Source: Elusimicrobiota bacterium | Lineage (GTDB): Bacteria > Elusimicrobiota > Elusimicrobia > UBA1565 > UBA9628 | Direction of reading: 5' to 3' | Length of the DNA stretch: 64,000 nucleotides | Assembly: GCA_016212855.1 (NCBI GenBank) | Contig: JACRDP010000010.1 | Location: forward strand, 42,954-106,953 | Shown here: positions 28,208-63,871 of the stretch, in pieces | Numbering within the stretch: the first letter of the stretch is position 1 | Layout of the letters: every line of letters starts with the position of its first letter | Position numbers and translations under genes: made by a program | The notes under the pieces: model-generated | What the model was told of the DNA's origin: nothing | What the model saw: only the letters and a program-made list of their open reading frames with translations | The model's database searches: none

Positions 28208-28234
28208 CCCTCCCCTGGCGGGGGGAGCGTTTAT
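28208..28234 (+). terminator. terminator-like hairpin after the aldolase gene
   Basis: CTCCCC-TGGC-GGGGAG stem then GTTTATGT. Weak. Confidence 0.3.
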
Positions 28235-28254
28235 GTCCTAAACTTCTGCGAGTG

Positions 28255-28327
28255 GGTCCGTAGCTCAACGGATAGAGTACTTGGCTTCGAACCAAGTGAT
28301 CCGGGTTCGATTCCTGGCGGGCCCACC
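28255..28327 (+). tRNA. tRNA-Arg (anticodon UCG)
   Basis: Hand-folded cloverleaf. Acceptor GGGTCCG/CGGGCCC. D-stem GCTC/GAGT. Anticodon stem CTTGG/CCAAG with loop CTTCGAA. T-arm CCGGG-TTCGATT-CCTGG. Encoded CCA. Confidence 0.75.
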
Positions 28328-28355
28328 AAATTTAGCCTCAAAATAGCCCCCCGCG

Positions 28356-29501
28356 TTGAAATATTACCGTAACGCTTCCCTGATAACATCCTGGGGCATG
28401 CTTCTGCTCGCCGCCGCCCCGGCGTTTTTGCCCCTGTCCGCCTCGGCCAAGCCGGCCGTCGTCGTCAAGTCCACCGCGGCGGCCAGAGCGGAACTCGGCC
28501 GGGAAGCCGTGGCGCTCCTGTCTGAATCGGGCGCCGACCCAGATTCCGAGGTCCGGGCCGCGGTCGCCAACGCCTGGGGCCTTCTCGCCAACCGCGCCGC
28601 GGTGCCCTTTCTCAAGAAGGCGATTTCCGACGCCAACCCCGACGTGAGGATCGCCGCCGCCGCGGGCCTTTATAAGCTGGGCGAGGTGGACGGGCTGACC
28701 AATCTCATCGATGAGACCAAGACCTTGGGCGGCGCGCCGCCGACCACGCCCGCGCAGGAGCTCAGACGCATGGCGCGCGACGCCGCGCGCGCGCGGGCCG
28801 TGCTCAAGCTCGGCGAGGTCGCCGGCGAAAACGTGCGCGCGTCCTTGCTGGCCGCGCACAAAGACCCGCAGGGGGAAGTGCGCGACGCCGCCGCGATCGC
28901 CCTCGCTCGCCTCGGAGACCCGACCGCCGGTCCTTTTCTTTCCGCCATATCCGACTCCGACGACGCCGTGCGCGCTTCCGCCGCCCATTCGCTGGGCTTG
29001 ATCGGACGCGAGGGGCGCGACCTCCTGGCCAAGATGGCGTCGAGCGACGCCAACGCGTCAGCGCGCGCCGAGGCCTGCGCGGCTTTGGGCTCGTTCAGCG
29101 ATCCCGACTCGGCGGGGGTCCTCTCCGCCGCGCTCAAGGACAAGAGCGGCCGCGTGCGCCTCGCGGCGGCACGCGCGCTGGGGCGGCGCGCCGAGCCCGA
29201 GTCCACCGCGGCCCTCAAGGCTTTGCTCGAGAAGTCGCCGCCGCCAGAGCTGTCTTTGATCGCTCAATCGGGCCTGGCGGAGCGCGGCGAAGACGTCGAT
29301 CTGGGCCTCGCCGACCTGACGCTCGGCCAGGGCGACCCCGAACTGAAGAGCCTCGCCATCCGCGTGCTCGGCCCCGTCCGGCGCCCCGAAGCGATCGCCC
29401 TTTTGGCCAAGGCGATGCGCGGCGACGCCTCGCGCCGCGTGCGCGTCGAGGCCGCGGCGGCGATCATCGTGCGCCTGCGCCGCATCGAGGCCCCGCGTTG
29501 A
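28356..29501 (+). CDS. HEAT-repeat (PBS lyase-like) secreted protein
   Basis: Signal peptide. Repeated DxxVRxAAAxALG(K/R)LG HEAT motifs. Start is either an alternative codon near 28356 or the ATG of MLLLAAAPAF. Confidence 0.65.
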   Translation: MKYYRNASLITSWGMLLLAAAPAFLPLSASAKPAVVVKSTAAARAELGREAVALLSESGADPDSEVRAAVANAWGLLANRAAVPFLKKAISDANPDVRIAAAAGLYKLGEVDGLTNLIDETKTLGGAPPTTPAQELRRMARDAARARAVLKLGEVAGENVRASLLAAHKDPQGEVRDAAAIALARLGDPTAGPFLSAISDSDDAVRASAAHSLGLIGREGRDLLAKMASSDANASARAEACAALGSFSDPDSAGVLSAALKDKSGRVRLAAARALGRRAEPESTAALKALLEKSPPPELSLIAQSGLAERGEDVDLGLADLTLGQGDPELKSLAIRVLGPVRRPEAIALLAKAMRGDASRRVRVEAAAAIIVRLRRIEAPR

Positions 29502-32500
29502 GGATATTCCTCGTCGCGGGACTCGTCCTCCTGGCGGCTCTGCCGGCTTCGGCCGTGCGTCCGTCCGAGCGCGCGAAGAAGGACGCGAAGCGCTTCGGCC
29601 TCGACAAACTCGAGCGGACGAGGACGCGCACGCCGCGCGCCCGGATGAACGAGGATTTCGGCCGCTTCAATTCGTCGTCGGGCGGCCGCTGGAAACTGCG
29701 GCTCGACCCGCGCACCGGCGAGCCCTCGGCGCTGAGCGAAGGCCGCACCGCGCCCCGGCGCGGCCGGGCGACCGACGTCTCCGGCCAGTTCTTGCAGGAG
29801 CAGGGGACCTTCCTCGGGCTTGATCCCGCGACTTTGCAGGTCGAAAAGGAATCGACCGGCGACGGCCACCGGCACGTGCTTTACCGCCAGACCTACCGCG
29901 GCCTGCCCGTCGAGTTCGCCCGGGTCAAGGTCCACCTCGACGACGCCGGCTCGGTGCTCGGCTTCAATTCGACCTACGAGCCCGACCTGCGCGTCGACGT
30001 CAATCCCACCGTGTCCGCGTCCGAAGCGTCCAGAATCGCCGAAGGCGATTCCCAGGGAACGGCCGACGGCGCCGCCGAGCTCGTCGTTCTTCCCGTCCAG
30101 TCCACCGGCCGCGCGCACCTCGCCTGGAAGATCAAGGTCCGGTCCGTGCACGCGGCCTGGCGCTACTACATCGACGCGCGCACCGGCCAGATCCTTTTCC
30201 GCTACGACAACCTGCGCTTCGCCGTGTGCCTGACGTCGGGAGTGATCGCGGGCTCCGTCTACGACGTCGACCCCTCGAGCACGCCGGCGCAGAATCGCCC
30301 GCTGAACAATCAGTGGGTCTACATCGCCGACGCTTCGACACGGTCCCTGACCGTGGCCGACCCGGTCTTCGGCAACGGCTTTTTCTGCGGCGGCGCGACG
30401 GGCAAGGTCTCCATGGGTCTGCAGGGCCCCTTCGTCAACGCCGCCAACTTCCGCGGGCCGAGCATGCACTACGACAACGGCGGCGGCGTGTGGTCGACGC
30501 TCTCCAGCCCCATCTCATCCCCGCATCCCTACCCCAACTCCACGACCCAAGTGTCCACGATCAACCTGACTCTCGCCGCCCCCACGGCCGTGAAGTTCCT
30601 GCCCGTCTTCAGCACTTTCAAAGTCGGCGAGTTCTCCGGCGCCGACACGTCCGACTCCGCCGGCGGCGGAATCGCCGACGACGACCAACTCAGCATCGTC
30701 GACGGCTTCGGCGAGCCGGTCGCGAGCTTCATCGGCGACCGCGGCGCCTTCAACGGCACGGCCGTGGCGGGCAAGGTCATGCGCCTGTACCTGAAATCCA
30801 ACGAGAGCGGGCAGCACGACGGCTACGACGTCTCGTTGTCGAGCTATCTGTCGCTGACGAGCCCGTTCACCTTCGGCGCCCCGAGCACGTCGAGCCACGT
30901 CTGGACCACGGCCGACGCCCCGGTCGGCCTGCGCGGCGAGCTCAACATCTTCTACCACATCAACTTGATGCACGATTACTTCTTCAACGACGTCAACAAG
31001 TCGAGCGCCGCGCCTGTATCCCGGCCCGTGGTCGCGATGGCCCACGTCGGCCCGAACATGTCCAACGCCTTCTACAACCCGGACTACGACAACCTGATGT
31101 TCGGAGACGTGAACGCTGTGGCCCCGCAGGAAGGGTTTACCGACGACGCGACCGTCGTCCATCACGAGTACGTGCATTACCTCGTCGAGAAGATTTGGTC
31201 CATCCAGAACTTCGGCCAAGCCGGGGCGATCTCGGAGGCGCAGGCCGACTACTTCTCGGCGAGCTCGCTCAACAACTCCTCCATCGGCACCTACGTTCTC
31301 GCGACGCTCGGCGGAACGGGGGCGTTGCGCGAGCTGGACTGCACAAAGCCCGGCATCACCTGCCGCGTGCTCAGCAGCCTCTCCTGGGCCGGCGAAATCC
31401 ACGACGACAGCATCTTCCTCTCGCAGGCCGAATGGGACATCCGCCGCGACCGCATCGCCGCCCTCGGCCCGGCGGCGGGGCGATCCTGCGCGGACGGCCT
31501 GGTCTTCCAGTCGATGCTCTTCTTCCCGGAGAGCTTCAGCGAGGTCTACGACGCGATGCGCCGCGTCGACGCCGAGGGCCGCGTCGCCGCCTGCGGCGGC
31601 GCGGGCACCGCGCAGGCGGCCATCAATACCGCCTTCGCCTCGCACGGACTGGTGCTCGGCGCGGGCGACGTGTACGAGCGCAACGACGGCTTCGAGACCG
31701 CGACCGACGTCAGCACGCGCCCGGCCGTCTCGGGCACGATCTTCCCTTCGAGCGACAACGACTTCTTCTCCTTCGGCGCCGGCGCGGGCCTCGTCAAGAT
31801 CACCCTGTCTTTGCCTCCCTCCGGCGGCTACTACAAGGGCTATCAGCTGAAGCTCTTCGACCGCTCGCACCGCCTGGTGGCGGCTGCGGCGCCCCCCTAC
31901 GACGGCGTCAACACGGTCGACGGGCTCTGCGAGGTGTTCGACTGCAACACGACCGCTTCGACGGTCGATATCCAGTACAACAACCCGACCGGCGGGCTGT
32001 TTTATCTTCAAATCATCGGCGGCGACTGCGTCAACGGGTCGGCGAGCGGCGTCCAATCCACGACGCCCTACGGGCTGACGTTCTCCTACCAGCAGTCCGG
32101 CGCGCTGGGAGGCTCGATCGTGACCGCGAGCTTCGACAACGACACGATCCGCTTCGACGTGGACGTGACCACCTTCGTGAGCACCCAGAACTGGCGGTTC
32201 TCCACGGTGCAGCTGCGCGACCACTCGTTCAACATCTTGAGCAACACCCAGCTCAACTTCCCGCCGCTGGCGGGGGACTTCCTGACCTTCGTGTCGTCCT
32301 CCAACGGCCTCGGCCACATCTCCGGCACGGTGCGCCTCTCGCCGGGCTTCGCCACGCGCTACCCCGCGTCGGGCACCGTGCACCTCGAGGTCTTCGGCTA
32401 CAACGTGCACGGCAGCACCTCCTCGCTGGGCATGTCGAACCCGATCAACCTCACCGCCTCCCTGACCGAGCTGACCGCCTACAACAACGTCTTCAACCCG

Positions 32501-32746
32501 GCCCGCGGCGACAAGACCACGATCAAGTACGCGACCGTGGAGCCCGGACGCGTCGTGATCAAGCTGTTCACGGTCACGGGCGCCTACGTCGCGACCTTGC
32601 TCGACGCGGACATGCCCGCCGGCCGCGGCACCATGGACTGGGGCGGGCGCAACGTCAGCGGTTCGGTCGTCTCGAGCGGCATCTATCTCCTGCGCATCGA
32701 CGCTCCGGGCCTCCATAAGACCCAGAAGATCGCGGTCATCAAATGA
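29498..32746 (+). CDS. secreted zinc metalloprotease (PepSY/FTP propeptide-like N-region, HExxH) with T9SS-type C-terminal sorting domain (FlgD-Ig-like)
   Basis: Signal peptide. PepSY-like YRQTYRGLPV and AHLAWKIKV segments. HEYVHYLVEK with a downstream E. C-terminal approx. 90 aa match the T9SS type A sorting-domain pattern. Confidence 0.75.
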   Translation: MRIFLVAGLVLLAALPASAVRPSERAKKDAKRFGLDKLERTRTRTPRARMNEDFGRFNSSSGGRWKLRLDPRTGEPSALSEGRTAPRRGRATDVSGQFLQEQGTFLGLDPATLQVEKESTGDGHRHVLYRQTYRGLPVEFARVKVHLDDAGSVLGFNSTYEPDLRVDVNPTVSASEASRIAEGDSQGTADGAAELVVLPVQSTGRAHLAWKIKVRSVHAAWRYYIDARTGQILFRYDNLRFAVCLTSGVIAGSVYDVDPSSTPAQNRPLNNQWVYIADASTRSLTVADPVFGNGFFCGGATGKVSMGLQGPFVNAANFRGPSMHYDNGGGVWSTLSSPISSPHPYPNSTTQVSTINLTLAAPTAVKFLPVFSTFKVGEFSGADTSDSAGGGIADDDQLSIVDGFGEPVASFIGDRGAFNGTAVAGKVMRLYLKSNESGQHDGYDVSLSSYLSLTSPFTFGAPSTSSHVWTTADAPVGLRGELNIFYHINLMHDYFFNDVNKSSAAPVSRPVVAMAHVGPNMSNAFYNPDYDNLMFGDVNAVAPQEGFTDDATVVHHEYVHYLVEKIWSIQNFGQAGAISEAQADYFSASSLNNSSIGTYVLATLGGTGALRELDCTKPGITCRVLSSLSWAGEIHDDSIFLSQAEWDIRRDRIAALGPAAGRSCADGLVFQSMLFFPESFSEVYDAMRRVDAEGRVAACGGAGTAQAAINTAFASHGLVLGAGDVYERNDGFETATDVSTRPAVSGTIFPSSDNDFFSFGAGAGLVKITLSLPPSGGYYKGYQLKLFDRSHRLVAAAAPPYDGVNTVDGLCEVFDCNTTASTVDIQYNNPTGGLFYLQIIGGDCVNGSASGVQSTTPYGLTFSYQQSGALGGSIVTASFDNDTIRFDVDVTTFVSTQNWRFSTVQLRDHSFNILSNTQLNFPPLAGDFLTFVSSSNGLGHISGTVRLSPGFATRYPASGTVHLEVFGYNVHGSTSSLGMSNPINLTASLTELTAYNNVFNPARGDKTTIKYATVEPGRVVIKLFTVTGAYVATLLDADMPAGRGTMDWGGRNVSGSVVSSGIYLLRIDAPGLHKTQKIAVIK

Positions 32747-33894
32747 GGAAAGCCGCCGTCGCCGTGCTGATGTTGGTCTGCGCCGCGCCCGCGGTCCGCG
32801 CCGCGGGGCCGGGCACGACGGCCGTGCCCGTGCTGCAGATACCGATGTCCGCGCGCGCCGCCGGCATGGGGACCTCCTTCACCGCCGTCGCCAGCGACGC
32901 CTCCGCGCTGTTTTACAACCCGGCCGGGCTGGCCCGCTTGAACGCGCACGAGCTCGATTTCAGCTTCGCTTCCGGGCAGGGCGAGACGTCGATCCAGAAT
33001 TTCGCCTACGCCGGACCCACGCCGTTTACGGGCATCTCCGGCAACGGCTACACCAGCTTCGGCGCGAACCTGCTGTACTCGCAAAGCGGAAAGATCGAGA
33101 TCAACCGCCTCGCTCCCAACGGCTCCTTGGCCTCCTCCGAGAGCGTGAGCGCGGGCTCGGATCTCGTGCTCTCGGGCGGCTACGCCGAGCGCGTGGGGAT
33201 GACGCCGCTCGAATTGCGCGACCAGACCTATCAGATCGACCATTATCTCGGGATCGGGGGAAAGTACGTGCGCTCGACGATCGTGAGCAAGACGGGCAGC
33301 GCCTTCGCCGCCGACGTCGGCTACCTCGTGCACTCGCCGGAGGCGGGCTGGAGCTTCGGCGCCTCGGCCCTCAACGTCGGCGGCAAGATCAAGTACAACG
33401 AGGAGCGGGAGCCCCTGCCGACGACGTTTCGCGGCGGCTTCGCCTGGCAGGGCGGCGTGCCCTCGGTGCACAACGTGATCGCCTCGCTCGACGGCGACTA
33501 TCTGACGCACGAGCGGGAATGGCACGCGAACCTGGGTCTGGAGTACTTCTGGGTGAAGACCTACGGCATGCGCATCGGCTATCAGGTCCATCGCGACGAC
33601 GCGGGCCTCACCGTGGGCTTGGGCCTGCGCTGGAAGGGGCGCTTCCTGTTCGACTACGCGTGGGGCCTGGCCAAGTCCCTGAGCGACCAGCACCGCATCA
33701 CGGTCTCTTATCGCTTCGGGGGCGTGCCGCCCTCCCAGCGCGGCCGCCAGCGCCGGCCCTTCATCGAATCGGTCCCGGAGCGCGATCAGCTGCGCAACAT
33801 CGAGGACCGCCAGCCGCAGTTCACCGATCCGCCTCCGCGACCCCGCGCCGTGCCGCGCGAGCGCAGCACCGGCGTCCCCGGCTGGATCTATTGA
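32743..33894 (+). CDS. PorV/PorQ-like outer-membrane beta-barrel protein
   Basis: Signal peptide then SARAAGMGTSFTAVASDASALFYNPAGLA, the signature N-terminal motif of the PorV family. ATGA overlap with the upstream protease gene. Confidence 0.6.
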   Translation: MRKAAVAVLMLVCAAPAVRAAGPGTTAVPVLQIPMSARAAGMGTSFTAVASDASALFYNPAGLARLNAHELDFSFASGQGETSIQNFAYAGPTPFTGISGNGYTSFGANLLYSQSGKIEINRLAPNGSLASSESVSAGSDLVLSGGYAERVGMTPLELRDQTYQIDHYLGIGGKYVRSTIVSKTGSAFAADVGYLVHSPEAGWSFGASALNVGGKIKYNEEREPLPTTFRGGFAWQGGVPSVHNVIASLDGDYLTHEREWHANLGLEYFWVKTYGMRIGYQVHRDDAGLTVGLGLRWKGRFLFDYAWGLAKSLSDQHRITVSYRFGGVPPSQRGRQRRPFIESVPERDQLRNIEDRQPQFTDPPPRPRAVPRERSTGVPGWIY

Positions 33895-33908: not shown

Positions 33909-34076
33909 CTAGTGGACGGGCTTAGCCACCATGTCGGCCTGATGCGCGGAGAAGGTCTTCGCAATCAGCTTCACGTCGCCCGTCTTGAGGGTCCGCTCCC
34001 AGCCGCAGCTGCACTTCAGCTTCTTCTTTTCGGAACGGAACTCGTACATGTGGATTTTCATACGCCAGTTTACCAT
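33909..34076 (-). CDS. hypothetical small protein (about 55 aa)
   Basis: Unlisted small ORF MVNWRMKIHMYEFRSEKKKLKCSCGWERTLKTGDVKLIAKTFSAHQADMVAKPVH downstream of the glycoside hydrolase. No RBS support. Confidence 0.2.
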   Translation of the reverse strand: MVNWRMKIHMYEFRSEKKKLKCSCGWERTLKTGDVKLIAKTFSAHQADMVAKPVH

Positions 34077-41368: not shown

Positions 41369-41534
41369 ACGTATGGTGCCGGAGGCACTGGCAACTGCTC
41401 TGCGCCGCCGTTAAACTCAACAGAGCATCTGTAGCTCGGGGAATTGGCCCCGGGGCATCCACGACCCGACCGAAATCGGGTGAGACCAGAGGTCTGCGGC
41501 GCGTTTACGCCGAGGCTTCTGGCTTTTTATTTTT

Positions 41535-42278
41535 ATGGGAACGAACATTATTAAATCTATGAGAATCAGCGGAACACGCGTCGGTGGATCAATGTGCATC
41601 GTCTTAATCGTAGCTTCTCTTGGCATGGCTGTCGCGCGCGCCGGAGACGTGAGCCGCGATGAGGCGTTCGCACAGGCAAAAAATGACGACGAACAAGCTC
41701 TTGTCGATCGCCCGTTGTACGTCACTCCCGCCCCGAAAAAATTCAGGCCCCGGGGCAAAGGCGAGCTCATCGTGATGAAGTTGACGCTGGAAAAGACGAC
41801 AATTCGTCGCGGAACTCCTATCCGCTGCCGATTAGAGATCGCTAACGTCGGGTCGGTCCCGTATGTGTTCATCGAGCACTCGCAAAGTTTTTTCAAAACC
41901 GGCCGTTTGCCATCGGATGCTCTCAATATGAGCGTCAAAGGTCCGCGAGGGAAAGAAAGCTTCGCTCGCTCGAAGTTCCCCGGGAATTCGGATATCGCTG
42001 CAGAAATTCATCTTCCGGCTGGACTTACTGAGGCCGAGAAAGCGGCCATGGTCGAAAGCATGAAACGCGATAAACGCTCGACGACGACGCTTTTCCAACG
42101 CCTTGCCCCGGGAGAAACACTGCATACCCGCGGCGATACGGCTCCAAATGGTTTTCGCACATTCGACATCGGCTCTTGGCTCAATTCGGATGGGGATTAT
42201 GAGCTGTACATGGTCCTCGATGCGTTTTCCAAATCCGAAAGAAAATCCAATCGCGTACACCTGAAGGTGGTTCCATGA
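41535..42278 (+). CDS. hypothetical secreted protein
   Basis: Signal peptide (MCIVLIVASLGMAVARA). No recognised domain. Confidence 0.5.
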   Translation: MGTNIIKSMRISGTRVGGSMCIVLIVASLGMAVARAGDVSRDEAFAQAKNDDEQALVDRPLYVTPAPKKFRPRGKGELIVMKLTLEKTTIRRGTPIRCRLEIANVGSVPYVFIEHSQSFFKTGRLPSDALNMSVKGPRGKESFARSKFPGNSDIAAEIHLPAGLTEAEKAAMVESMKRDKRSTTTLFQRLAPGETLHTRGDTAPNGFRTFDIGSWLNSDGDYELYMVLDAFSKSERKSNRVHLKVVP

Positions 42279-43861
42279 AGCGGCTGCTTCTTCTGGCCCT
42301 TATGGCATGGGTGGTTCCGGCCATCGCTTATGCGGGGCCGTGTCCAAGCTCGGATGGGTCGCCTTGCTTGCCTGATGATGGAACACAGAAAGATTTGCTG
42401 AGAAGGATCCGAGAAGTGCAGGCCCTGAACAATGAGATTCGCTCTGCCGCCATCGTTTGGCAAAATTCTCGCGCCGGAACGGATAGAGCGGGGGAGCTCT
42501 CCAAGTATGAGGCGTACGCGCAAGCGAAAAACACATTCGATGACAAATCGGTAAAACTCATCGATCAAATTCAGAAAGCCTACAATGTCGCGCCTACGCA
42601 CACATCCGGATTAACTCGAAAACCCTCGGGGACAAACCGCACTATGGCTTGGATGGATGGCCTCCCAGCGCAATGGAAACCTCGGTTCAGCAACAATGAT
42701 GACGATTATCGTGCGATTCAGACCAAGAGCGGGACTCATTACGCATCCGTGAATACGGCGGCTTATGCCGGCGCAACGCTTCCCAATGGCGATGTCGTGA
42801 TCGGCGCGTCATTGCTGTCAGAGGCATTGAAGGATCAGAATCCCGGCATCATCGCTCAAGCGATATATCATGAGGGGCGCCATTTCGCCGATTTGGTGAC
42901 TACCGGCTGGCGGTCGATTGAGCAGGGCGAAGTTGCTGCCTATACAGCGGTAGCGGCGCATGATGATACCTTTAAGCTGTCAGAGGGCTGGCTCCAACTC
43001 AATGCAGCCAATCTCTTAGCCAATCAGGCTGCGCTGGATGCCGGCTCGGAACGCGCGTATGCCATCACCGCCAAAGATGAGAAATTGATCAAGGGCATCA
43101 TCGACCAAGAAAAAGCTAGGCAGGGAGATTTCGCTAAATATTATGCGATTCTCAAGGCGGAGGTGACGAAGACCACCGCTGAGCGCGAGCATGATGAACT
43201 CCTGAAAAAAACAATCGCCTCAATAGCTCTCCGATCATGCGCCAATCCCGGAAGCGTGACACAAGATGAGCTGAACGCTCTCGATAAGCCTTACCGGAAA
43301 GATTTCTACCGAGGAGAGTTCCCCAAGGGACTGGAGGGGGCAGACGGCACCGGGTATTGTACCGAACCGTATTTTTATTTGGGCGACATGGCGGGGGCGA
43401 ACCCTGACGCGTTGCGCCTCAAATCGTTGTCAACGCCCAGGCAGCCTGCAATCTCTCCACCTCTGCCTGAGCAGCATGTTCCGGCCGTGCCGGTGGATCT
43501 CGCTGCGCTGACGATCTCGAACATGCGCCGCTTGGCGATCCTCGCATGCGATTATCCTGGAAGGCTAACTTACGCAGATACAACCGGGGCGATCAAGACG
43601 GCGTATGTTCCGCTTCCAGCCGCGCAGAGTGCAGGATCGGATCTAACCGGATGTGCGCGTTTTGTCTATGATGCTCTCGTTTTCTTTGTTCCTCAGGGCT
43701 ACCGGGGGGCGCTGACGCCTGACTGGCTTCGCGAACGAGCCCTGGCCTACAGTCCGCCAACTCCTCCGCGAGGCGAACCTGGCGGGGGACGCGGCAGCCC
43801 TCCTAGAAAGGATCCTTGCTACTGGGACCCTGGGTGCAACTGCCGTGTCTGCGAGGATTGA
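42275..43861 (+). CDS. hypothetical secreted protein with HExxH-like motif (HEGRH) and Cys-rich C-terminus
   Basis: Signal peptide MKRLLLLALMAWVVPAIAYA. AIYHEGRHFADL. C-terminal DPCYWDPGCNCRVCED. ATGA overlap with the upstream gene. Confidence 0.5.
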   Translation: MKRLLLLALMAWVVPAIAYAGPCPSSDGSPCLPDDGTQKDLLRRIREVQALNNEIRSAAIVWQNSRAGTDRAGELSKYEAYAQAKNTFDDKSVKLIDQIQKAYNVAPTHTSGLTRKPSGTNRTMAWMDGLPAQWKPRFSNNDDDYRAIQTKSGTHYASVNTAAYAGATLPNGDVVIGASLLSEALKDQNPGIIAQAIYHEGRHFADLVTTGWRSIEQGEVAAYTAVAAHDDTFKLSEGWLQLNAANLLANQAALDAGSERAYAITAKDEKLIKGIIDQEKARQGDFAKYYAILKAEVTKTTAEREHDELLKKTIASIALRSCANPGSVTQDELNALDKPYRKDFYRGEFPKGLEGADGTGYCTEPYFYLGDMAGANPDALRLKSLSTPRQPAISPPLPEQHVPAVPVDLAALTISNMRRLAILACDYPGRLTYADTTGAIKTAYVPLPAAQSAGSDLTGCARFVYDALVFFVPQGYRGALTPDWLRERALAYSPPTPPRGEPGGGRGSPPRKDPCYWDPGCNCRVCED

Positions 43862-46342: not shown

Positions 46343-49300
46343 TTACGCGACGGAAGAGTCGTCGTCGGAGCCGTCGCGCTTGCGGCGGCGGCGAGTCATG
46401 CCGACAAGGTACGGCAGTTCGGAGTGATAGACCAGGTAGCCGATCGAAACGGCGGCGGCGCCGCGCAAAGTCAAGGACAGAAGATCGCGCCAGTCCTTGC
46501 CCTCGGCGGGACGATCCTCGGGCAGTTCATATTTATGGCGCGCGGGCGGCATATAGGTGTAGCTGAAATCCTCTTCCTCGGGCTTGACGCCGGGCGCGAC
46601 CGGGCGCGCCGGGTTGACCGCTCCGCCCGCGACGCGCGCGACCGGCGGGACTTTGTCGTCGGCGGACGGGGCCGTCAAGACCGGAGTGCGCGCGGCCAGC
46701 CGAGGCAGGCCCGGGCTGTCGCCCGCGCCCAGCCCCTTCATCGGGACGGGGGACCAGCCCGTGCCCTGGTCCTTGCGATCGCGCGAGCCGTCGAAGCGCG
46801 ACGCTAAGGAGGGAACGGGGTCATGCCCGCCGCCGACCGTCGTTTGATTGGGAATCGCGCGCGCGCCGCGGTTGACCGGGATCACGGGGCCGCCGCCGGC
46901 GAGGCCTTCGGGCACGGCCGGGCTCACGACCGGGCCGCTCTTGGGAGCGCCGCCTCCGCCGCCGGGAGCGCCGTCACCGCCGGCTCCGCCGCCGCCGCCG
47001 TCGGCTCCGCCGCCGCCTCCACCGCCACCGCCTCCTCCACCGCCGCCGGCGTCGCCGAAGCCGCGGAAGTTGGGAGCCTTGGGCCCCTTGCCGCCGCCGC
47101 CTTCTCCGCCGCCGCCTCCGCCGCCGGCGACGGAGCCGCCGTTGCCGCCCGAGCCGGGGCCGCCGTTGCCGACCGGGCCGGGGGGCGGAGGCTCGGGCTG
47201 GGGCTCGAGTTTGAGTTCGGGCTCGGGCTGGGGCTCGATCTTCTGTTCAGGAATCGGATCGGGCTTCGTCTCCGCAACCGTGTCGTCCGCTGGATCGGGT
47301 GTCCGTTCGGCGGGCACTTCGATATCCGTGTTGAAGGGCACTGCCCGGCGCCGAGGGATGACGACAGGAGGCGGGGGAATCACTCTCGCGGCCAAGCTCA
47401 TGTAGCCGCCCTCGCCGATGCGCCGGAGGGCCTTGCGCCAGATGCTTTCCTTGAGCTTCGGCTCCACTTCCACCTTCTCCTTGACCTTCTCGCGGACGCG
47501 TTCCCCGGCCTTCAGGTCCAACTCGCCTTTGCCCTTGACCTTCACGGGCTCCTCGATGAGCTTGACCTTCCGGACCTCTTCGCCCTTCATGAATTCGAAT
47601 TCGAGCTGTTCGCCGGGCTTGGCGCCCTCGACCTTCGCCTCCACGATCTCCGTTTCGCCGGGCTTGGCTTCGACCACTTTCGCTTCGATGGGCTTGGCTT
47701 CCACCGGCTTCTCGCCCGGCTTGGCTTCCACCGGTTTGCCTTCGACCGGCTTCGCTTCGACCGGCTTCGCTTCGACCGGCTTGGCATCCGCCACCTTGGC
47801 TTCGACGGGTTTCGCCTCGACCGGCTTTCCGTCGAGCGGCTTGGCTTCCACCGGCTTGCCTTCAAGCGGGTTCACTTCGAGCGGCTTCGCTTCCAGCGGC
47901 TTGGCCTCGAGGGGTTTGGTCGCGGAAGCCAACTCGCTGCCCGCCGTTTCGGCGGCCGGGCCGTTGGACTCGACTTTCGTGTTGGCCTTGACGTCGCCGG
48001 TCTTGAGCTCCGGGCGCTCGATCCCGCCGCCCTTGGCGTCTTTGATCCATTCGTTCTTCAGTTTCTCGAGCCCTTCTCCCGCGCGCTTCCACCAGGGGCC
48101 TTTCGCTCCGGCGGGGGCTTCGACTCCCGCTACCGTGCCCTCCCCTTTGGCCACGCCGCCTCCGCCGCCCGCGCCTTCGACGACGGCCGGCGCGCCTTTG
48201 CCGACCGCCGGCGTGACGGGGCCCTGAGCGCCCGCCCCGTTGACGTTGGCCTGCCCCGGATTCTTCGCCCCGAAATCCAACTCCAACTGCACCGGCGGCT
48301 TGGCCGCGACGGCCGCGCCGCCGCCGGGCGTCGCTTTGGCGACGGGCTCGGCCTTCGGGGCGCGGAAGCGGTCGATGAGGCTCTTGCCGAACTTGTAGCC
48401 GGGCATTTCCTTGCCCATCGACTTCGCCCCGAAGAAGAGCATGCTGAGGTCCACGACCGCGTTGCCCAGCGCGTCGGTCCCCTCGGGCGTGCCCGCGTGC
48501 TGGATCGCGTCGTTGACGTGGGCGCCGGTGGCGAGAACGAACGGAGCCACGACGCTCGTGATGGCCAGCCCGCGGATAACGCTCACGCCCTTTCCGGCGA
48601 GGGTCACCGTGCGGCCCAGGCCGGTCGAGCCGGCCTTGGTCAGCGCCGCGCCCTTGGCCCCGATATTGGCCGCGAACTTGCCGAGCGCCGAGAACGCGTA
48701 CGGCATGGCCCAAGTGAGCGGGTTGGTCAGCATCTGGCCGACGGCCTCGCCGGCCGAGGCGAAGAAGCCGGCGACGGCGTGCCCGTTGCGGGAGAGCTGC
48801 TTGCCGTAGGTGCCCGCGCCGAACTCGGCGAGCGTGAAGTACGCCTCCAAGTCGGTCGGCGGCATCTTCATCGCCTGCTCGTAGTACAGCGGCGTGAGCT
48901 CGGCGGTGACGCCCATCGCCTCGAGGTGCTCGGGGCGCAGTTCCAGGGCGCGCTTGTCGAGGAGCTTGCGCGCGCCCGGGGTCAGAAGCTTCAGGAACTT
49001 GCGCGCCCACTCCTCGAACTTCTCCGGTTCCTTCTCGCCGTCGGGCTTGGTGCCCGCGATCGAGTAGCACCAGGCGGGGTTGCGCGACTTCGTGGCGATG
49101 TTGTTGAGCAGGGCCTGGTCGCCGCTGACGTTGCTTTCGACGACGTTGACGATGCCGGTATAGACGAAATTGCTGACGTAGTTCGAGGCGTCGAGCACCT
49201 GCTTCAGGACGGGGACGTCGACGATCTTCTGCGCCAGCCAGAGGGCCGGCGCCGAGCCGGGGATGGACTTCGAGGTGGTCGGCTTCTCCCAGCTGTTCTG

Positions 49301-51664
49301 CTTCGCCCAGCTTTCCGGCGCGGTCAGGTCGAAGGACTCGCGGTGCATCGGGTAATGCGTGACCCGGTCCTTGCTGGCGAACCAGTTTCCCGGATTCCAG
49401 CCGCCGCCGCCGTAGGCGTCGACGTCCTTGGTGAAGGTCTCCTCGCGGACGTTGCGCTGCCCGCCGCCGAGGTACTCGAAGGCCACCGTCGCGGCCTTCA
49501 GCTGGGACTTGGGATCGTGCGCGTTCTCCATGGCCCAGTCTTTGTCGTAGCGCACCGGATGCTGGACCAGCAAAGCGACGCCGCCGGAGCGTCCCGGCTC
49601 CGCGGTGCGGTCGCCGAAGAACGCGGTCAGGACCGTGCGCTCGCCGTTGGCCTTCTGCAGCACCATCGTGATGGCCTTGCGCGCGCCGGGGGCGATGGTC
49701 ATGCGGATCGCGGGCTCGCCGTTGTACTCGGCCAAGCCGTCCATGACCGCGTTGTAGTTCAGGAAGTCGGCGAAGGCCGCGGCTTTGCGGCCGTCGGCGT
49801 CGGCCTCGCCGATCGCGGCCAGGACTTCCTTGGCCAGCGCCAGCGCCGCCGCCTTGCGCTTGTCGGCGTTGGTCGCCGGGGGAAGCCCCGTGAGGTCCAC
49901 GTCCCAGCTCACGACCTGGCCGTCCTTGAGGAGCTGCTTGACGTGAGCGGACGCCTTCTTCAGAGTGGTGCCGTCGTGATTGACCCGGAACTCCATCTCG
50001 AGGGTGCCGTCGGCGTTGACGTGGTCGACCTGCATCCGGTAAGGCGAATTGTTCGCGTCGAGGAACTTGACCTCGCGGTTGCCCTTGGTCAAAGTGGCTT
50101 CGAAGCGGGGGCCGTCGCCGCCCAGCTGACGGATGATGGCGTCGCCGGTTTTATCGTTGCCCCGCTCGTAGCGCTCGACCTTGCCCTTCAGGTCGTAGGT
50201 CGTCTGCTCGGAGATGTTGGTCGCGGGATCGTAGGTCTGGCGCGTGAGGCGATGACCCGCGCCGTCGAAATTCTCGATGACCTGCGCGAGGACCACCCGC
50301 TGGCCGTCGAAGTTCTGATGGATGATCTCCTTGGCGCCGTTGGCCTTGGTGGTGATGCGGATGATGGCCGACATGTCCGCGGTCGAGGCTTCATACACGG
50401 ACGACTTGTCGGCCTTTTCGAAACGCAGGCCGACGAAGTCCGTGCCCTCGTGCTTGAAGGCCACCACCTCGCCGCCGCGCGAGCCCGCTCCCTGCGGGTA
50501 GGTCTCCCACGGCGAGAAGCGCGTGCCGATGGGCGCCTTGCGCACGTTTTCGCGGAGGTAGGCGCGGTAGGTCCACAGCACCGCGGCGAACTCGGCGAGC
50601 TCGGGGTTGAACTTGCCGATCTTGTCGAGGCGCTCGGTGATGTCGTCGTCGGACGTGGGGAAGGGTGTGGTGATGCCGACCGAGCGGGCCGAGTCCGCCT
50701 CGACCTTGATCAGATGGGCGACGAGCGCGTCGATGGACTTGAAGCTGTCCGGGTCGCCGCGCATCGCCGAGACGGCGCCTCGCCCGCTTTCCCAGAGCTG
50801 GAGGAGGTTCGCGCCGCGCTCGGCGGCGAAGTCCGGCTCCCCGCCCGGCAGCCGCTTGCGGAATTCGTCCAGCGCGCGTCCGGCCGCGAAGGTCAGGCCC
50901 GCGTAGTCGACCTGCACGGGGATCGCGGCGGTGACGACGGCGGTGTTGTTCGCCCGTACGGGCGCGGGAGTGGGCCGGTCGAGGTCGCGGGCCTTGGCGG
51001 CGTTGGTGCCGGGGGCGCCCTTGGGCGTGTACGACCAGGTCGCGGCGACGGACTTGCGCACCTCACGGAAATCCACGGCGACGCCGCCGCGGCCGGCCGG
51101 AACGCCGTAGCGCTTGGTCAGGTTGTCGAAGATCGTCTGGGCCTGGGAAGGATCGGCCGCGGCTTTATCGAGGTCTCCCAAGAGCGCGTCGACCGCGAAA
51201 AGCGGATCCGCCGCCGCCGTGGTCGCGGGCGCGTTTCCGGCCGCGACGACCGCCTTGCGCACCGCCGGGGTGAAGGCCGCGCCGCCGCCGGTCAGGCGCA
51301 GGCTTCGCGTGATGACGCTCGAGGTCCGGACCAGACGCTCATCGAGAATCTTGCGGTCCGAAGCCGGCATCTGGAGCGAGGCCAAACGGGACTTGAGCTC
51401 CTGGCGGCGGGCGTCGAGCGCGGCGAACGTCGAGGGCTGTTCGCCCTTGAGATGCTTGAGCAGCGCCGTCTCGAGGCCGGCCAGCTCGGCGGCCATGCGC
51501 AGGCCTTCGGGGCTCGTCGGCGCGCCGCCGATGGCCGAGGCCGTCTGGGGGACGGCGGGGACCGCGACGGCGGCGGTGCCTTCGCCGGCGCGGGCCGACA
51601 GGGAGGCGGCGAGCGCGAACGCGCACGCGGCGAGGAGGGGTACTCGGCGGCTCTGGGTCCTCAT
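46343..51664 (-). CDS. giant (1773 aa) secreted, C-terminally anchored surface protein with tandem KPxEA repeats and poly-Gly tracts
   Basis: Signal peptide MRTQSRRVPLLAACAFALAASLSARA. About 20 tandem (K/E)P(V/L)EA pentapeptides. G-rich low complexity. C-terminal TM plus RRRRKR tail. Confidence 0.65.
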   Translation of the reverse strand: MRTQSRRVPLLAACAFALAASLSARAGEGTAAVAVPAVPQTASAIGGAPTSPEGLRMAAELAGLETALLKHLKGEQPSTFAALDARRQELKSRLASLQMPASDRKILDERLVRTSSVITRSLRLTGGGAAFTPAVRKAVVAAGNAPATTAAADPLFAVDALLGDLDKAAADPSQAQTIFDNLTKRYGVPAGRGGVAVDFREVRKSVAATWSYTPKGAPGTNAAKARDLDRPTPAPVRANNTAVVTAAIPVQVDYAGLTFAAGRALDEFRKRLPGGEPDFAAERGANLLQLWESGRGAVSAMRGDPDSFKSIDALVAHLIKVEADSARSVGITTPFPTSDDDITERLDKIGKFNPELAEFAAVLWTYRAYLRENVRKAPIGTRFSPWETYPQGAGSRGGEVVAFKHEGTDFVGLRFEKADKSSVYEASTADMSAIIRITTKANGAKEIIHQNFDGQRVVLAQVIENFDGAGHRLTRQTYDPATNISEQTTYDLKGKVERYERGNDKTGDAIIRQLGGDGPRFEATLTKGNREVKFLDANNSPYRMQVDHVNADGTLEMEFRVNHDGTTLKKASAHVKQLLKDGQVVSWDVDLTGLPPATNADKRKAAALALAKEVLAAIGEADADGRKAAAFADFLNYNAVMDGLAEYNGEPAIRMTIAPGARKAITMVLQKANGERTVLTAFFGDRTAEPGRSGGVALLVQHPVRYDKDWAMENAHDPKSQLKAATVAFEYLGGGQRNVREETFTKDVDAYGGGGWNPGNWFASKDRVTHYPMHRESFDLTAPESWAKQNSWEKPTTSKSIPGSAPALWLAQKIVDVPVLKQVLDASNYVSNFVYTGIVNVVESNVSGDQALLNNIATKSRNPAWCYSIAGTKPDGEKEPEKFEEWARKFLKLLTPGARKLLDKRALELRPEHLEAMGVTAELTPLYYEQAMKMPPTDLEAYFTLAEFGAGTYGKQLSRNGHAVAGFFASAGEAVGQMLTNPLTWAMPYAFSALGKFAANIGAKGAALTKAGSTGLGRTVTLAGKGVSVIRGLAITSVVAPFVLATGAHVNDAIQHAGTPEGTDALGNAVVDLSMLFFGAKSMGKEMPGYKFGKSLIDRFRAPKAEPVAKATPGGGAAVAAKPPVQLELDFGAKNPGQANVNGAGAQGPVTPAVGKGAPAVVEGAGGGGGVAKGEGTVAGVEAPAGAKGPWWKRAGEGLEKLKNEWIKDAKGGGIERPELKTGDVKANTKVESNGPAAETAGSELASATKPLEAKPLEAKPLEVNPLEGKPVEAKPLDGKPVEAKPVEAKVADAKPVEAKPVEAKPVEGKPVEAKPGEKPVEAKPIEAKVVEAKPGETEIVEAKVEGAKPGEQLEFEFMKGEEVRKVKLIEEPVKVKGKGELDLKAGERVREKVKEKVEVEPKLKESIWRKALRRIGEGGYMSLAARVIPPPPVVIPRRRAVPFNTDIEVPAERTPDPADDTVAETKPDPIPEQKIEPQPEPELKLEPQPEPPPPGPVGNGGPGSGGNGGSVAGGGGGGGEGGGGKGPKAPNFRGFGDAGGGGGGGGGGGGGGADGGGGGAGGDGAPGGGGGAPKSGPVVSPAVPEGLAGGGPVIPVNRGARAIPNQTTVGGGHDPVPSLASRFDGSRDRKDQGTGWSPVPMKGLGAGDSPGLPRLAARTPVLTAPSADDKVPPVARVAGGAVNPARPVAPGVKPEEEDFSYTYMPPARHKYELPEDRPAEGKDWRDLLSLTLRGAAAVSIGYLVYHSELPYLVGMTRRRRKRDGSDDDSSVA
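47628..47925. repeat. tandem 15-bp repeats (about 20 copies, degenerate) inside the giant CDS
   Basis: Units like GGCTTCGACCGGCTT / GGCTTCCACCGGCTT encode the KPxEA repeats on the minus strand. Confidence 0.6.
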
Positions 51665-60323: not shown

Positions 60324-60398
60324 TCCGGGCTAGCTCAACGGTGGAGCAGGCCGCTGTTAACGGCAAGGTTCTAGGTTCGAGTCCTAGGCCCGGAGCCA
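60324..60398 (+). tRNA. tRNA-Asn (anticodon GUU)
   Basis: Hand-folded. Acceptor TCCGGGC/GCCCGGA. D-arm GCTC-AACGGTG-GAGC. Anticodon loop CTGTTAA. T-arm CTAGG-TTCGAGT-CCTAG. Encoded CCA. Confidence 0.85.
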
Positions 60399-61979
60399 AT
60401 TCAGACGCTCGTCAAAACTGACCTTGTCGCCTTCAACCTGGAATCCCAGGTCCGGAAGAGGGCGCAGGGTCAGTTTCATTTTGGACTTCTGCGTGTCGTA
60501 GACGACCTCGCCCACGAGTAGCGCCAGCAGTTCCTTCTGCTGAAGCGGCGTCAGCTTCGTGTAGAAGCCCGAGAAACTTTCCAAGTTGCGCCGGATGATC
60601 TCGGCGTCGATCTGCCGCGACTCAAGCTCGACGACTTCGCTGTCGAGCCGCTGGACCTGCTTCTCCAACTCCTCACGGCGCTCCTGCACTTGGCCGAGCT
60701 TGTCCATGAGCGCACGGTACTGCGGCACGGCTGGGCCCTGCGCGGCGAGGATGTTCGTGATGTTGCCGACCTCGGCTTCCTGCCTCCCGATCTCCGCGAT
60801 GAGGGCCACGCGCTTTTTCTGCTTGGCCGGCAGCTCCGTGCCCGTCATCTGCCGGGCTCTCTCCACGACTTCGTTGACGACCTCCTTCTGCTTGCCGAGG
60901 AACGCGATACGGTCCAAGACCAACCGCTCAAGCTCGCGCGCGGGCGCGCTCTTGGTCGGGCAGGCCGATTTGTCGAGCTTACTGACCGAGACGCACTTGT
61001 AGTAGAAATACTTACGGCCCTTCGAGTAGGCGAAGTTCGGCGTCATGGCGTGACCGCACGCGCCGCAGCGCACGAGCCCGCGGAGCATGAAGTTGTGCTT
61101 GTCCTGGTTCGGCGAGGTGTTCATCTGGCCGTTGGCCTTGAGCATGCGGCTCACTCGCTCGAAGATCGCGGGCTCGACGATGCCTTTATGCTCGCCCTCG
61201 TGAACATCGCCCTTGTGACTGATCTTACCGATATAGACCGGGTTGCGGAGAACGTAGTCCAAGCTCCCCTTGTTGAAGCGTCGTCCGCCGTGAATGTTGC
61301 CCTTGCGCGTCGTCCACTTCTTCATTCTGAAGCCCTGCTTATTGAGAGAAATCGCCGCCTTGCTGAGGGACTTCGTCTTGAGATAAGTCTCGTAGAGGAG
61401 CCGGACCTGCTTCGCCTCCGCCGCGTTAATGACGAGCTTTTTGGTTTCCTCATCGGCGTCATAGCCAAGAACAGGCGGGCCACCGGACCACTTTCCTTTG
61501 CGCGCCATCGCCGCGCGCTTGTCGCGCGTTCTCTCGCTGATCAACTCGCGTTCGAACTGCGAGAAATCCACGAGGATCGAGCGCATGAGCCGGCCGACGG
61601 ACGAGCCGGTGTCGATGGGCTGAGTGACCGAGACGTAGACTATCCCGTGCTTGTCGAAGATGTCGAGGACGTGCAGGAAGTCCTTCGTGTTGCGACTCAA
61701 GCGGTCGTACTTGTAGGTGACGACGGCCTGGAACTTGCCTTGCCGCGCATCCGCCAGAAGATGCTTGAGCCCCGGCCGGTCCATGTTGCCGCCCGTGTAG
61801 CCCGGGTCGTTGTATTCGACCGGAAACACGCGCCAGCCCTCGGCCCCGCGGCTCTTGATGAAGGCCTCGCAATACTCGCGCTGCGAGTCGAGCGAAGTGA
61901 AGTCGCCGCCCAGGTTCTCGTCCGTGGACTTGCGCGTGTAGACCGCGACCCACTTCACCGGCTTTTTATCGTTGGCCAT
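60384..61979 (-). CDS. large serine recombinase (resolvase catalytic domain + recombinase domain + zinc ribbon)
   Basis: VAVYTRKSTD...catalytic Ser region (YDRLSRN), central recombinase domain, and CGACGH...C zinc ribbon. 3' end overlaps the last approx. 15 nt of tRNA-Asn. Confidence 0.85.
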   Translation of the reverse strand: MANDKKPVKWVAVYTRKSTDENLGGDFTSLDSQREYCEAFIKSRGAEGWRVFPVEYNDPGYTGGNMDRPGLKHLLADARQGKFQAVVTYKYDRLSRNTKDFLHVLDIFDKHGIVYVSVTQPIDTGSSVGRLMRSILVDFSQFERELISERTRDKRAAMARKGKWSGGPPVLGYDADEETKKLVINAAEAKQVRLLYETYLKTKSLSKAAISLNKQGFRMKKWTTRKGNIHGGRRFNKGSLDYVLRNPVYIGKISHKGDVHEGEHKGIVEPAIFERVSRMLKANGQMNTSPNQDKHNFMLRGLVRCGACGHAMTPNFAYSKGRKYFYYKCVSVSKLDKSACPTKSAPARELERLVLDRIAFLGKQKEVVNEVVERARQMTGTELPAKQKKRVALIAEIGRQEAEVGNITNILAAQGPAVPQYRALMDKLGQVQERREELEKQVQRLDSEVVELESRQIDAEIIRRNLESFSGFYTKLTPLQQKELLALLVGEVVYDTQKSKMKLTLRPLPDLGFQVEGDKVSFDERLNWLRA

Positions 61980-62280
61980 GAAAAGATTCTATCATTATCG
62001 AATGTCATTTTAACTTGTCAAAACCGGCCTAGTCTTCGGCGCGACGGGAGAATCCGGCATCGACATGACCGCCAACAATTCGACGATCCGATCCCACCGC
62101 TCCTCCGGCGTCAATTCGTCCGGGTCCATGAAATGATGGCCCGCCCGCAGGCGCGGCTTGCGGCGCTTCTTCTCCGACGGCTCTTGCGACGGCGTGCTCT
62201 GTATTTGGCTCTTTATTTTTCTCCTGTTTCGACCGGGCCCTGTCCGGTCTTCGTTTTAGGGGGCACCATTCCCCCGGTTG

Positions 62281-63822: not shown

Positions 63823-63871
63823 CCTACTCCTTTTCGAGTCCTTTACAACCAACAGATTTATCTGATGGTTG

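Follow-up and report, generated by a model that had tools for sequence, protein, structure and literature searches.

The window analyzed here is a 64,000-nucleotide stretch of an Elusimicrobiota genome assembly (GCA_016212855.1, contig JACRDP010000010.1, positions 42,954 to 106,953 of the forward strand). Between positions 28356 and 33894, it carries a real three-gene operon, hereafter the triad, which is conserved across Elusimicrobiota and encodes a HEAT-repeat protein, an M4-like zinc metalloprotease with a C-terminal domain (CTD) resembling those of type IX secretion systems (T9SS), and an outer-membrane barrel of the PorV/PorQ family. The T9SS is considered characteristic of Bacteroidota and of a few relatives from the Fibrobacteres-Chlorobi-Bacteroidetes (FCB) group, with one general PorV for all type A cargo. 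The triad is not a one-off but one case of a widespread pattern, in which a gene ending in a CTD is followed by a PorV-like gene, and no previous account of how widespread such pairs are seems to exist. With moderate confidence, we propose that the barrel is the cognate CTD receptor of the protease, which it would hold at the cell surface, and that the HEAT protein is a periplasmic partner. The features of the operon are as follows.

28356-29501 (+): HEAT-repeat protein gene, an open reading frame (ORF) of 381 aa from a TTG at 28356
29498-32746 (+): gene for the M4-like zinc metalloprotease precursor with a T9SS-type CTD, 1082 aa, TTG start
29498-29554 (+): protease signal peptide, MRIFLVAGLVLLAALPASA before VRP, read by eye; the pattern is kept in orthologs
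29837-30196 (+): propeptide region with FTP (aa 114-159) and PepSY (aa 172-233), from Pfam
30896-31420 (+): thermolysin-type catalytic core, approximately aa 467-641, from Pfam Peptidase_M4 and the alignment with 1npc
32450-32743 (+): protease CTD, aa 985-1082, a seven-strand beta-sandwich, T9SS type A-like
32743-33894 (+): gene for the PorV/PorQ-family outer-membrane protein, 383 aa, ATG start
32803-33717 (+): mature hatch and beta-barrel, aa 21-325, from the NF033709 alignment, with AlphaFold2 strands in residues 69-325
33718-33891 (+): conserved C-terminal tail of the barrel protein, aa 326-383, specific to the ortholog group, from the ortholog alignment

An earlier note on this DNA had described three tightly coupled genes in a high-GC host, and both points hold, since the genes lie on the same strand with 4-nt overlaps and the window has a GC content of ~67%. 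The ATGA overlaps that it placed at both junctions need one correction: the protease/barrel start/stop overlap at 32743 is indeed ATGA, but the HEAT/protease stop/start overlap at 29498 is TTGA, with TTG as the start codon of the protease. The GC contents at third codon positions of the HEAT, protease, and barrel ORFs (0.86, 0.92, and 0.92) are typical of real genes in a sequence of ~67% GC.

The operon encodes a zinc metalloprotease with a type A-like C-terminal domain

The FTP/PepSY propeptide and the HExxH zinc protease recognized in the earlier note were both confirmed by profile searches. FTP (43.2 bits) and PepSY (25.6 bits) each exceeded the Pfam cut-off and were found in 43/43 and 32/43 orthologs, respectively, while Peptidase_M4 (PF01447) matched the catalytic core with 27.4 bits against a cut-off of 22.4. 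The HEYVH motif occupies aa 556-560 (nt 31163-31177), the third zinc ligand E580 (nt 31235-31237) lies within AISEAQADY, and the core aligns with the Bacillus cereus neutral protease (1npc) over HExxH and NEAxSD. Because H556, E557, H560, and E580 are invariant in the 43 orthologs, the protein is predicted to be a catalytically competent thermolysin-type zinc enzyme that should be active. D637 is also invariant and H635 nearly so, and these residues could be the counterparts of thermolysin Asp226 and His231, respectively. The M4 C-terminal helical domain (PF02868) gave no match in the window protease and matched 2/43 orthologs. No family could be assigned to the ~230 residues that separate the propeptide from the core or to the ~260 that precede the CTD. 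An invariant S-x-G-x-S...L linker is located just before the CTD (residues 976-985, nt 32423-32452), in a stretch that AlphaFold2 leaves disordered, and could be a processing or recognition site. The NCBIfam models for T9SS-dependent M36 (30.1 bits; cut-off, 600) and M6-like (21.8 bits; cut-off, 885) proteases aligned with the CTD and short stretches only.

The T9SS type A-like CTD that had been proposed from the sequence is supported at the family level. All 26 ortholog CTDs compared matched TIGR04183 (best E value, 1e-8) as well as the C terminus of the PorZ model, and 17/26 matched that of PorU. In Pfam, FlgD_ig was found in 42/43 protease orthologs and PF18962 in 4/43. The AlphaFold2 model of the CTD is a seven-strand sandwich with a pLDDT of 88.9, and its fold matches comprise the CTDs of PorU, PorZ, mirolase, and NucA, with PorZ as the best Foldseek match. 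A C terminus lacking any resemblance to T9SS or FlgD-Ig models, which would have spoken against the earlier proposal, is therefore not what we found. The window protease itself scored 17.3 bits as a whole protein and 22.8 bits as an isolated CTD with TIGR04183 (cut-off, 23), and 17.8 bits with FlgD_ig (cut-off, 27).

The third gene encodes a PorV/PorQ-family barrel with a conserved tail

The third protein matches the NCBIfam PorV/PorQ family model NF033709 with 155.5 bits (cut-off, 90), and positions 1-326 of the model align with residues 25-325. An N-terminal PorV-type motif, AGMGTSFTAVASDASALFYNPAGLA, is present near its start, the family signature G41-M42 ... Y58-N59-P60-A61-G62 corresponds to invariant columns in the orthologs, and the public orthologs carry the name "PorV/PorQ family protein." The earlier assignment to PorV thus stands for the family but not for the equivalog, as the scores for PorV (NF033710, 68 bits) and PorQ (NF033711, 80.6 bits) are far below the respective cut-offs of 250 and 220, and the PorV2 model gave 27.6 bits against a cut-off of 325. 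When a profile of the orthologs was searched against the sequences of the PDB, the sole match was PorV (6h3i_F; E value, 1.5e-13). The best Foldseek matches of the AlphaFold2 model were likewise PorV (8gl6_F, with an E value of 4.3e-15 and template modeling [TM] scores of 0.63/0.66, and 6h3i_F), and FadL came next (5.5e-7; TM score, 0.50), so that PorV outranked FadL by 8 orders of magnitude. Weaker Pfam matches were obtained for Toluene_X (16 bits; cut-off, 29.7) and, on the N-terminal motif, for UPF0164 (26.7 bits). The earlier note had allowed for a FadL/OmpP1 protein in place of PorV; PorV is the best match in both sequence and fold, and the barrel is a FadL-fold member of the PorV/PorQ family that is nearer to PorV than to FadL without being a PorV or PorQ equivalog.

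After the last strand (...SYRF, residue 325), the protein and its orthologs continue with a conserved tail of ~58 residues, not mentioned in the earlier note, that reads GGVPPSxRGRQRRPFIE ... PRxVPRER ... PGWIY-COOH and is predicted to be disordered (AlphaFold2 pLDDT < 50 over residues 334-383). Most orthologs, to ~42% identity, retain PGW[ILV]Y at the end, and the paralogs are devoid of the tail and end at the barrel. By analogy with the topology of FadL and PorV, and with OmpA, LysM, and TPR domains fused at the same end in relatives, the tail is probably periplasmic. Examples of such C-terminal fusions in PorV-like relatives are OmpA (locus L040), TPR with a CsgG/TolB_N-like domain (L041), and fn3 (L034), and among 53 long PorV-like representatives the C-terminal domains included TPR (16), CsgG-like (6), LysM (5), and OmpA (4).

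The triad is conserved across Elusimicrobiota

The window protease is 100% identical to the public protein HY923_03310 from an Elusimicrobia metagenome-assembled genome (MAG). Clustering of its family at 90% identity gives more than 120 clusters, with full-length members throughout that come from Elusimicrobia wherever named, and the family extends to 41% identity. The protease gene lies directly 5′ of the barrel gene in 29 of the 30 ortholog places having upstream DNA, and linkage kept to 41% protein identity rules out a chance adjacency of the two genes. At 19 assessable Elusimicrobia places (the window and L084 counted), a HEAT gene lies upstream, with identities as low as 27%. Looking for the triad in related genomes, as the earlier note had suggested, thus recovered the pair almost throughout and the HEAT gene in most places. 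In the complete 3.8-Mb genome CP096137.1, the triad is kept within a ruvAC-yebC ... mscS-pepP-amidase-bacA neighborhood, and the same neighborhood is found at L003 (44% identity). Since this housekeeping neighborhood is kept, the triad looks like a core trait of the phylum rather than an accessory island.

Pairs of CTD-ending and PorV-like genes recur in other lineages

A profile search with the barrel retrieved 18,126 clusters (50% identity) at E values up to 0.001, and a scan of species-representative genomes yielded 80 loci, in which the distant relatives share 24-35% identity. The distant PorV-like genes are hosted by Elusimicrobia (paralogs, including those of Endomicrobium), FCPU426, Sumerlaeota, Krumholzibacteriota, Zixibacteria, Ignavibacteria, Chlorobiota, and Bacteroidetes MAGs. 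Directly 5′ of 43 of the 66 distant PorV-like genes, there is an ORF on the same strand that terminates in a CTD; the pair was seen in 11 of the 12 Elusimicrobia paralog loci, and 45 of the 70 CTD-ending ORFs detected in 734 kb occupy the position directly 5′ of a PorV-like gene. The CTD profile used for these counts was built from the same data, and Pfam FlgD_ig provided an independent check. FlgD_ig was above its cut-off at the cargo C terminus in eight of the nine proteins where it was detected, the remaining one (L033) being below. These eight cargo proteins are an S8 subtilase, a GH32-like protein, a CBM30 protein, an fn3-rich protein of 2194 aa, an NHL/beta-helix protein of 2485 aa, and three with little or no annotation. 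A tenth cargo, a 1871-aa Kelch/fn3 protein (L075), had no Pfam FlgD_ig match, and its CTD was found by the custom profile only.

Several loci carry more than one pair or more than one barrel gene. Three cargo-barrel pairs are arranged in tandem in FCPU426 (L039, 825-10953), and two divergent pairs, one with an S8 subtilase, are found in Elusimicrobia RBG_16_66_12 (L031, 5244-11002), indicating that one genome can hold several dedicated barrels. At five loci from Cytophagia, Zixibacteria, and Ignavibacteria MAGs (L035, L066, L069, L079, and L080), two PorV-like genes follow one CTD-ending gene of ~510-850 aa in tandem, which may represent one cargo with two barrels. Upstream ORFs of ~1250 aa in Bacteroidetes and Ignavibacteria MAG loci were considered as PorU candidates; this was rejected for the one locus tested, that of Bacteroidetes MAG L062, which gave no PorU match and whose barrel is assigned at the family level only. 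Local hidden Markov models found no further CTD or PorV-like genes within the window.

The earlier note had called this arrangement undescribed. A literature search on Elusimicrobia with a T9SS or PorV, on PorV-like proteins, and on a T9SS in candidate phyla revealed no prior description. The claim is nevertheless correct only in part, as the combination of a cargo, a cognate barrel encoded directly after it, and a periplasmic partner is known from type B CTD/PorP-SprF/PorE operons (PMC12618676), and the cognate pairs PorU-PorV and PorZ-PorQ are known as well (PMC10202324).

The barrel as a probable receptor for the protease CTD

Across these loci, the constant partner of the barrel is the CTD and not the type of enzyme, which is why we think that the barrel recognizes the CTD. 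We propose that the protease, which carries a Sec signal and an FTP/PepSY propeptide and ends in the type A-like CTD, would be bound through this domain by the barrel on the external side of the outer membrane and thereby retained on the surface, by analogy with the systems below. The surface protease would then probably feed the cell with peptides. CTD-barrel binding, the surface location, the role of the HEAT protein, and the nutritional purpose are each what we infer to be most likely. The extracellular loops of PorV bind CTDs (PDB 8gl6). PorV and PorQ retain PorU and PorZ via their uncleaved CTDs (PMC10202324), while SprF-type barrels, whose genes lie directly 3′ of those for type B cargo, in some cases along with PorE, set both secretion and final location (PMC12618676). 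The behavior of these three kinds of barrels supports a receptor role for the barrel of the triad.

Two other functions of the pair were weighed against this one. The barrel could instead take up hydrophobic peptides or lipids that the protease liberates, as a channel of FadL type, with the CTD as a generic Ig-like domain. The FadL fold of the family and the weak Toluene_X and UPF0164 matches agree with such a channel, and coupling it to a degradative enzyme would make physiological sense. We nevertheless regard this as highly improbable, given that PorV ranks above FadL in sequence and fold and that the same barrel family pairs with non-protease cargo having only the CTD in common, a pattern that links the barrel with the CTD instead of with the products of an enzyme. 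It is also very unlikely, in our view, that the protease and the barrel form sorting machinery, i.e., an analogue of PorU-PorV that trims the CTDs or propeptides of other Elusimicrobiota CTD proteins. The pair is phylum-wide, apparently single-copy, and set in a kept housekeeping neighborhood; the barrel shows higher conservation than the protease (for example, 86% versus 77% identity on one 134-kb contig); in both fold and profile comparisons, the CTD is matched best by the two retained CTDs, those of PorU and PorZ; and further CTD cargo exist in Elusimicrobia genomes. All of this would suit sorting, but the acyl-enzyme intermediate of the PorU sortase is impossible for a metalloprotease, and M4/M36 proteases are ordinary T9SS cargo, as the NCBIfam T9SS-dependent M36 and M6-like families illustrate. 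Moreover, the other cargo own barrels, suggesting a non-covalent anchoring for which cleavage is unneeded.

A HEAT-repeat protein as the candidate periplasmic partner

The HEAT-repeat assignment made in the earlier note was corroborated by Pfam, in which HEAT_2 reached 150 bits (2e-44) over four stretches and HEAT 80 bits (2.8e-23), with HEAT_PBS matching too. None of the NCBIfam equivalogs for NblB or the CpcE/F phycobilisome lyases was matched (e.g., 50 bits versus a cut-off of 300). An identical public protein of 367 aa is named "HEAT repeat domain-containing protein," and most orthologs begin likewise; the ATG at 28398, which yields these 367 aa, is therefore the probable real start. Its N terminus, MLLLAAAPAFLPLSASA before KP, reads like a Sec signal, and those of the orthologs are also Sec-signal-like, with the pattern MLLLAA.PAF.P.SA.A before K. 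Because of this signal-like N terminus, shared by the orthologs, the protein is predicted to be located, probably, in the periplasm.

In the receptor model, the Sec-exported HEAT protein would serve as a periplasmic scaffold or chaperone of the protease-barrel complex, and it could dock onto the conserved C-terminal tail of the barrel. Such a role would parallel that of PorE in type B operons and of the TPR, OmpA, and LysM domains that other PorV-like barrels carry as fusions. It is suggested by the signal-like N terminus, the position in the operon, the disordered barrel tail, and the fusions in relatives. Alternatively, the HEAT protein might not be a partner of the barrel at all but a periplasmic inhibitor or maturation chaperone of the protease, as the earlier note had envisaged, an idea that is compatible with a receptor role for the barrel. 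Its gene lies directly 5′ of the protease gene with a stop/start overlap, is probably co-transcribed with it, encodes a signal-like N terminus, and is kept with the protease in most lineages. However, M4 enzymes usually have an FTP/PepSY propeptide as their intramolecular chaperone and inhibitor, and the protease already carries one; in addition, several loci that keep the protease have no HEAT gene, and we therefore consider this role distinctly unlikely.

Export of the protease and the type IX secretion system

Several observations weigh against a receptor of T9SS type assisted by a HEAT partner. The barrel falls short of both equivalog cut-offs given above, the window CTD remains just short of the TIGR04183 cut-off (22.8 versus 23), and its Ig-like sandwich is generic, with many non-T9SS fold matches at similar Z scores. 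An orthologous barrel gene at L018 (8940-11086) is the lone one without an adjoining protease gene, with its PGWIY tail intact. No HEAT gene adjoins the protease gene at L001/L002, L015, L017, and L026, although the barrel tail is kept there, which weakens the link between the HEAT protein and the tail; a correlation between an adjoining HEAT gene and the tail motif was sought across the loci and none was found. Lastly, none of the ~30 ORFs searched in the 64-kb window belongs to a T9SS core (translocon or motor) family according to Pfam and NCBIfam, and T9SS genes have been placed in FCB phyla only (PMC11285876). As for the genes next to these incomplete loci, the ORF adjoining the L018 barrel gene matches the Pycsar effector transmembrane domain (PycTM), and a 367-aa gene 5′ of the most divergent protease gene (L001) was examined as a diverged HEAT protein and rejected on testing.

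With no translocon or motor gene in the window and the T9SS reported in FCB phyla only, the receptor model does not account for the export step. One could suppose, in line with the self-contained module suggested in the earlier note, that the CTD-barrel pair, possibly together with the beta-barrel assembly machinery and the HEAT protein, is an autonomous module for export and anchoring that works without SprA/Sov or GldKLMN. Such a module would be a minimal, possibly ancestral relative of type IX secretion present in Elusimicrobiota, FCPU426, Sumerlaeota, and other phyla, with the triad as its phylum-wide core example. We hold the module, and likewise its relation to type IX secretion, to be unlikely. 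Tightly coupled 1:1 pairs do occur across many phyla, with up to three in tandem (L039); the pair studied here resides in a phylum outside FCB that is not reported to have a T9SS; and no T9SS core gene was found in the window or noticed at the other loci inspected, an absence that holds for these regions and not for whole genomes, which were not searched. On the other hand, folded cargo of 500-3200 aa is too bulky for a 14-strand FadL-type barrel with an N-terminal hatch, and the SprF-type pairs of Bacteroidota, equally 1:1, still need SprA (PMC12618676). Two-partner secretion (TpsA/TpsB) was considered too, and no Omp85/POTRA or TPS-domain match from Pfam or NCBIfam was obtained on any triad protein.

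Another large protein of the window was compared with SprA. The product of the gene at 46343-51664 (-) is 1773 aa in length and has a signal peptide, tandem repeats of PVEAK type, a long stretch rich in Gly, and a hydrophobic segment at its C terminus. It had no Pfam, NCBIfam, or PDB sequence match, and an SprA-like identity was rejected since the comparison with PDB sequences gave no similarity to SprA.

Relation to known systems and significance

The receptor model has a close parallel in the type B CTD/PorP-SprF/PorE operons of Flavobacterium johnsoniae (PMC12618676; PMC9143113), where the cargo gene is also followed by its own FadL-like barrel gene, the operon often includes a periplasmic helical-repeat or peptidoglycan-binding partner, and the barrel sets the surface location of the cargo. 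The triad differs in that its CTD is type A-like (TIGR04183, FlgD_ig), with no type B CTD or CHU_C match on the protease; that its barrel belongs to the PorV/PorQ family, with no PorP_SprF (PF11751) match; that its partner consists of HEAT repeats throughout, unlike PorE (TPR, propeller, OmpA_C); and that its host, an Elusimicrobiota bacterium, lies outside FCB. With the same gene order and logic, the triad would work like this system but is not a member of it.

In Bacteroidota, porU and porV are neighbors. With PorU-PorV and PorZ-PorQ (PMC10202324), the triad would, in the receptor model, share a large protein whose type A CTD is retained and which a barrel of PorV/PorQ type keeps on the surface, and PorU is also a peptidase. 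However, the enzyme of the triad is an M4-like metalloprotease instead of a C25-type cysteine sortase or a propeller protein, its barrel reaches neither equivalog cut-off and ends in a PGWIY tail that is unique, and the genes of the window offer no evidence of attachment to anionic lipopolysaccharide or of the remaining T9SS. The general PorV shuttle of Bacteroidota (PDB 6h3i and 8gl6) is similar in fold, N-terminal hatch signature, and presumed CTD ligand, but it serves all type A cargo, whereas the triad and dozens of related loci contain a separate barrel gene for every cargo gene. T9SS-dependent metalloproteases (M36 and M6-like; thermolysin M4) resemble the window protease as zinc enzymes with an FTP/PepSY-type propeptide and a type A CTD; the protease of the triad is distinguished by an insertion of ~230 aa between propeptide and core, a barely detectable M4_C domain, and a family restricted to Elusimicrobiota. 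Finally, FadL/TodX, Treponema UPF0164, and Bacteroidota BamG have the same 14-strand barrel and N-terminal hatch, but they rank well below PorV in sequence and fold and have no known link to CTD cargo.

Type A-like CTD cargo with dedicated PorV-family barrels are a conserved and apparently core feature of Elusimicrobiota, and the pair recurs with many cargo in several candidate phyla, a wide spread that we consider a more valuable result than the single cassette. If an SprA-type translocon is present in the genomes carrying such pairs, the range of the T9SS grows and type A cargo gain specialized shuttles comparable to SprF; if it is absent, the CTD and the barrel constitute a new and simpler route to the cell surface. 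Either outcome bears on the evolution of the T9SS and on the genome-based prediction of surface enzymes in uncultured bacteria.

Genomic setting and other features of the window

The triad is flanked by housekeeping genes, namely, queA, a spoIID-like gene, ruvB, ruvA, yebC, and a class II aldolase gene on one side and GH113, bipA, mscS, pepP, amidase, and bacA genes on the other. The following tRNA gene lies 27 nt 5′ of the HEAT ORF.

28254-28328 (+): tRNA-Arg (TCG), from ARAGORN; Rfam tRNA, 67.5 bits

A terminator-like hairpin at 28210-28227 (+) is located 3′ of the aldolase gene and 5′ of tRNA-Arg. As a scan of the region 5′ of the triad found no sigma-70-like promoter, tRNA-Arg and the operon may be on one transcript. 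Between the barrel gene and the GH113 gene, a 50-aa ORF (MKIHMYEFRSEKKKLKCSCGW...) is encoded at 33909-34061 (-), with a counterpart in none of the fetched loci.

Two further regions of the window were noted. A 2′-dG-II purine riboswitch aptamer at 41424-41494 (+; Rfam RF03165, 77.8 bits against a gathering threshold of 60) precedes the overlapping ORFs 41535-42278 and 42275-43861, which have no Pfam match and lie in a low-GC patch (0.56 versus ~0.67). At 60324-60398, tRNA-Asn abuts a gene for a large serine recombinase (60384-61979, -), a MobC-like gene is present at 62281-63852, and the GC content falls to 0.60; the region 60324-63852 is probably a mobile element integrated at tRNA-Asn.

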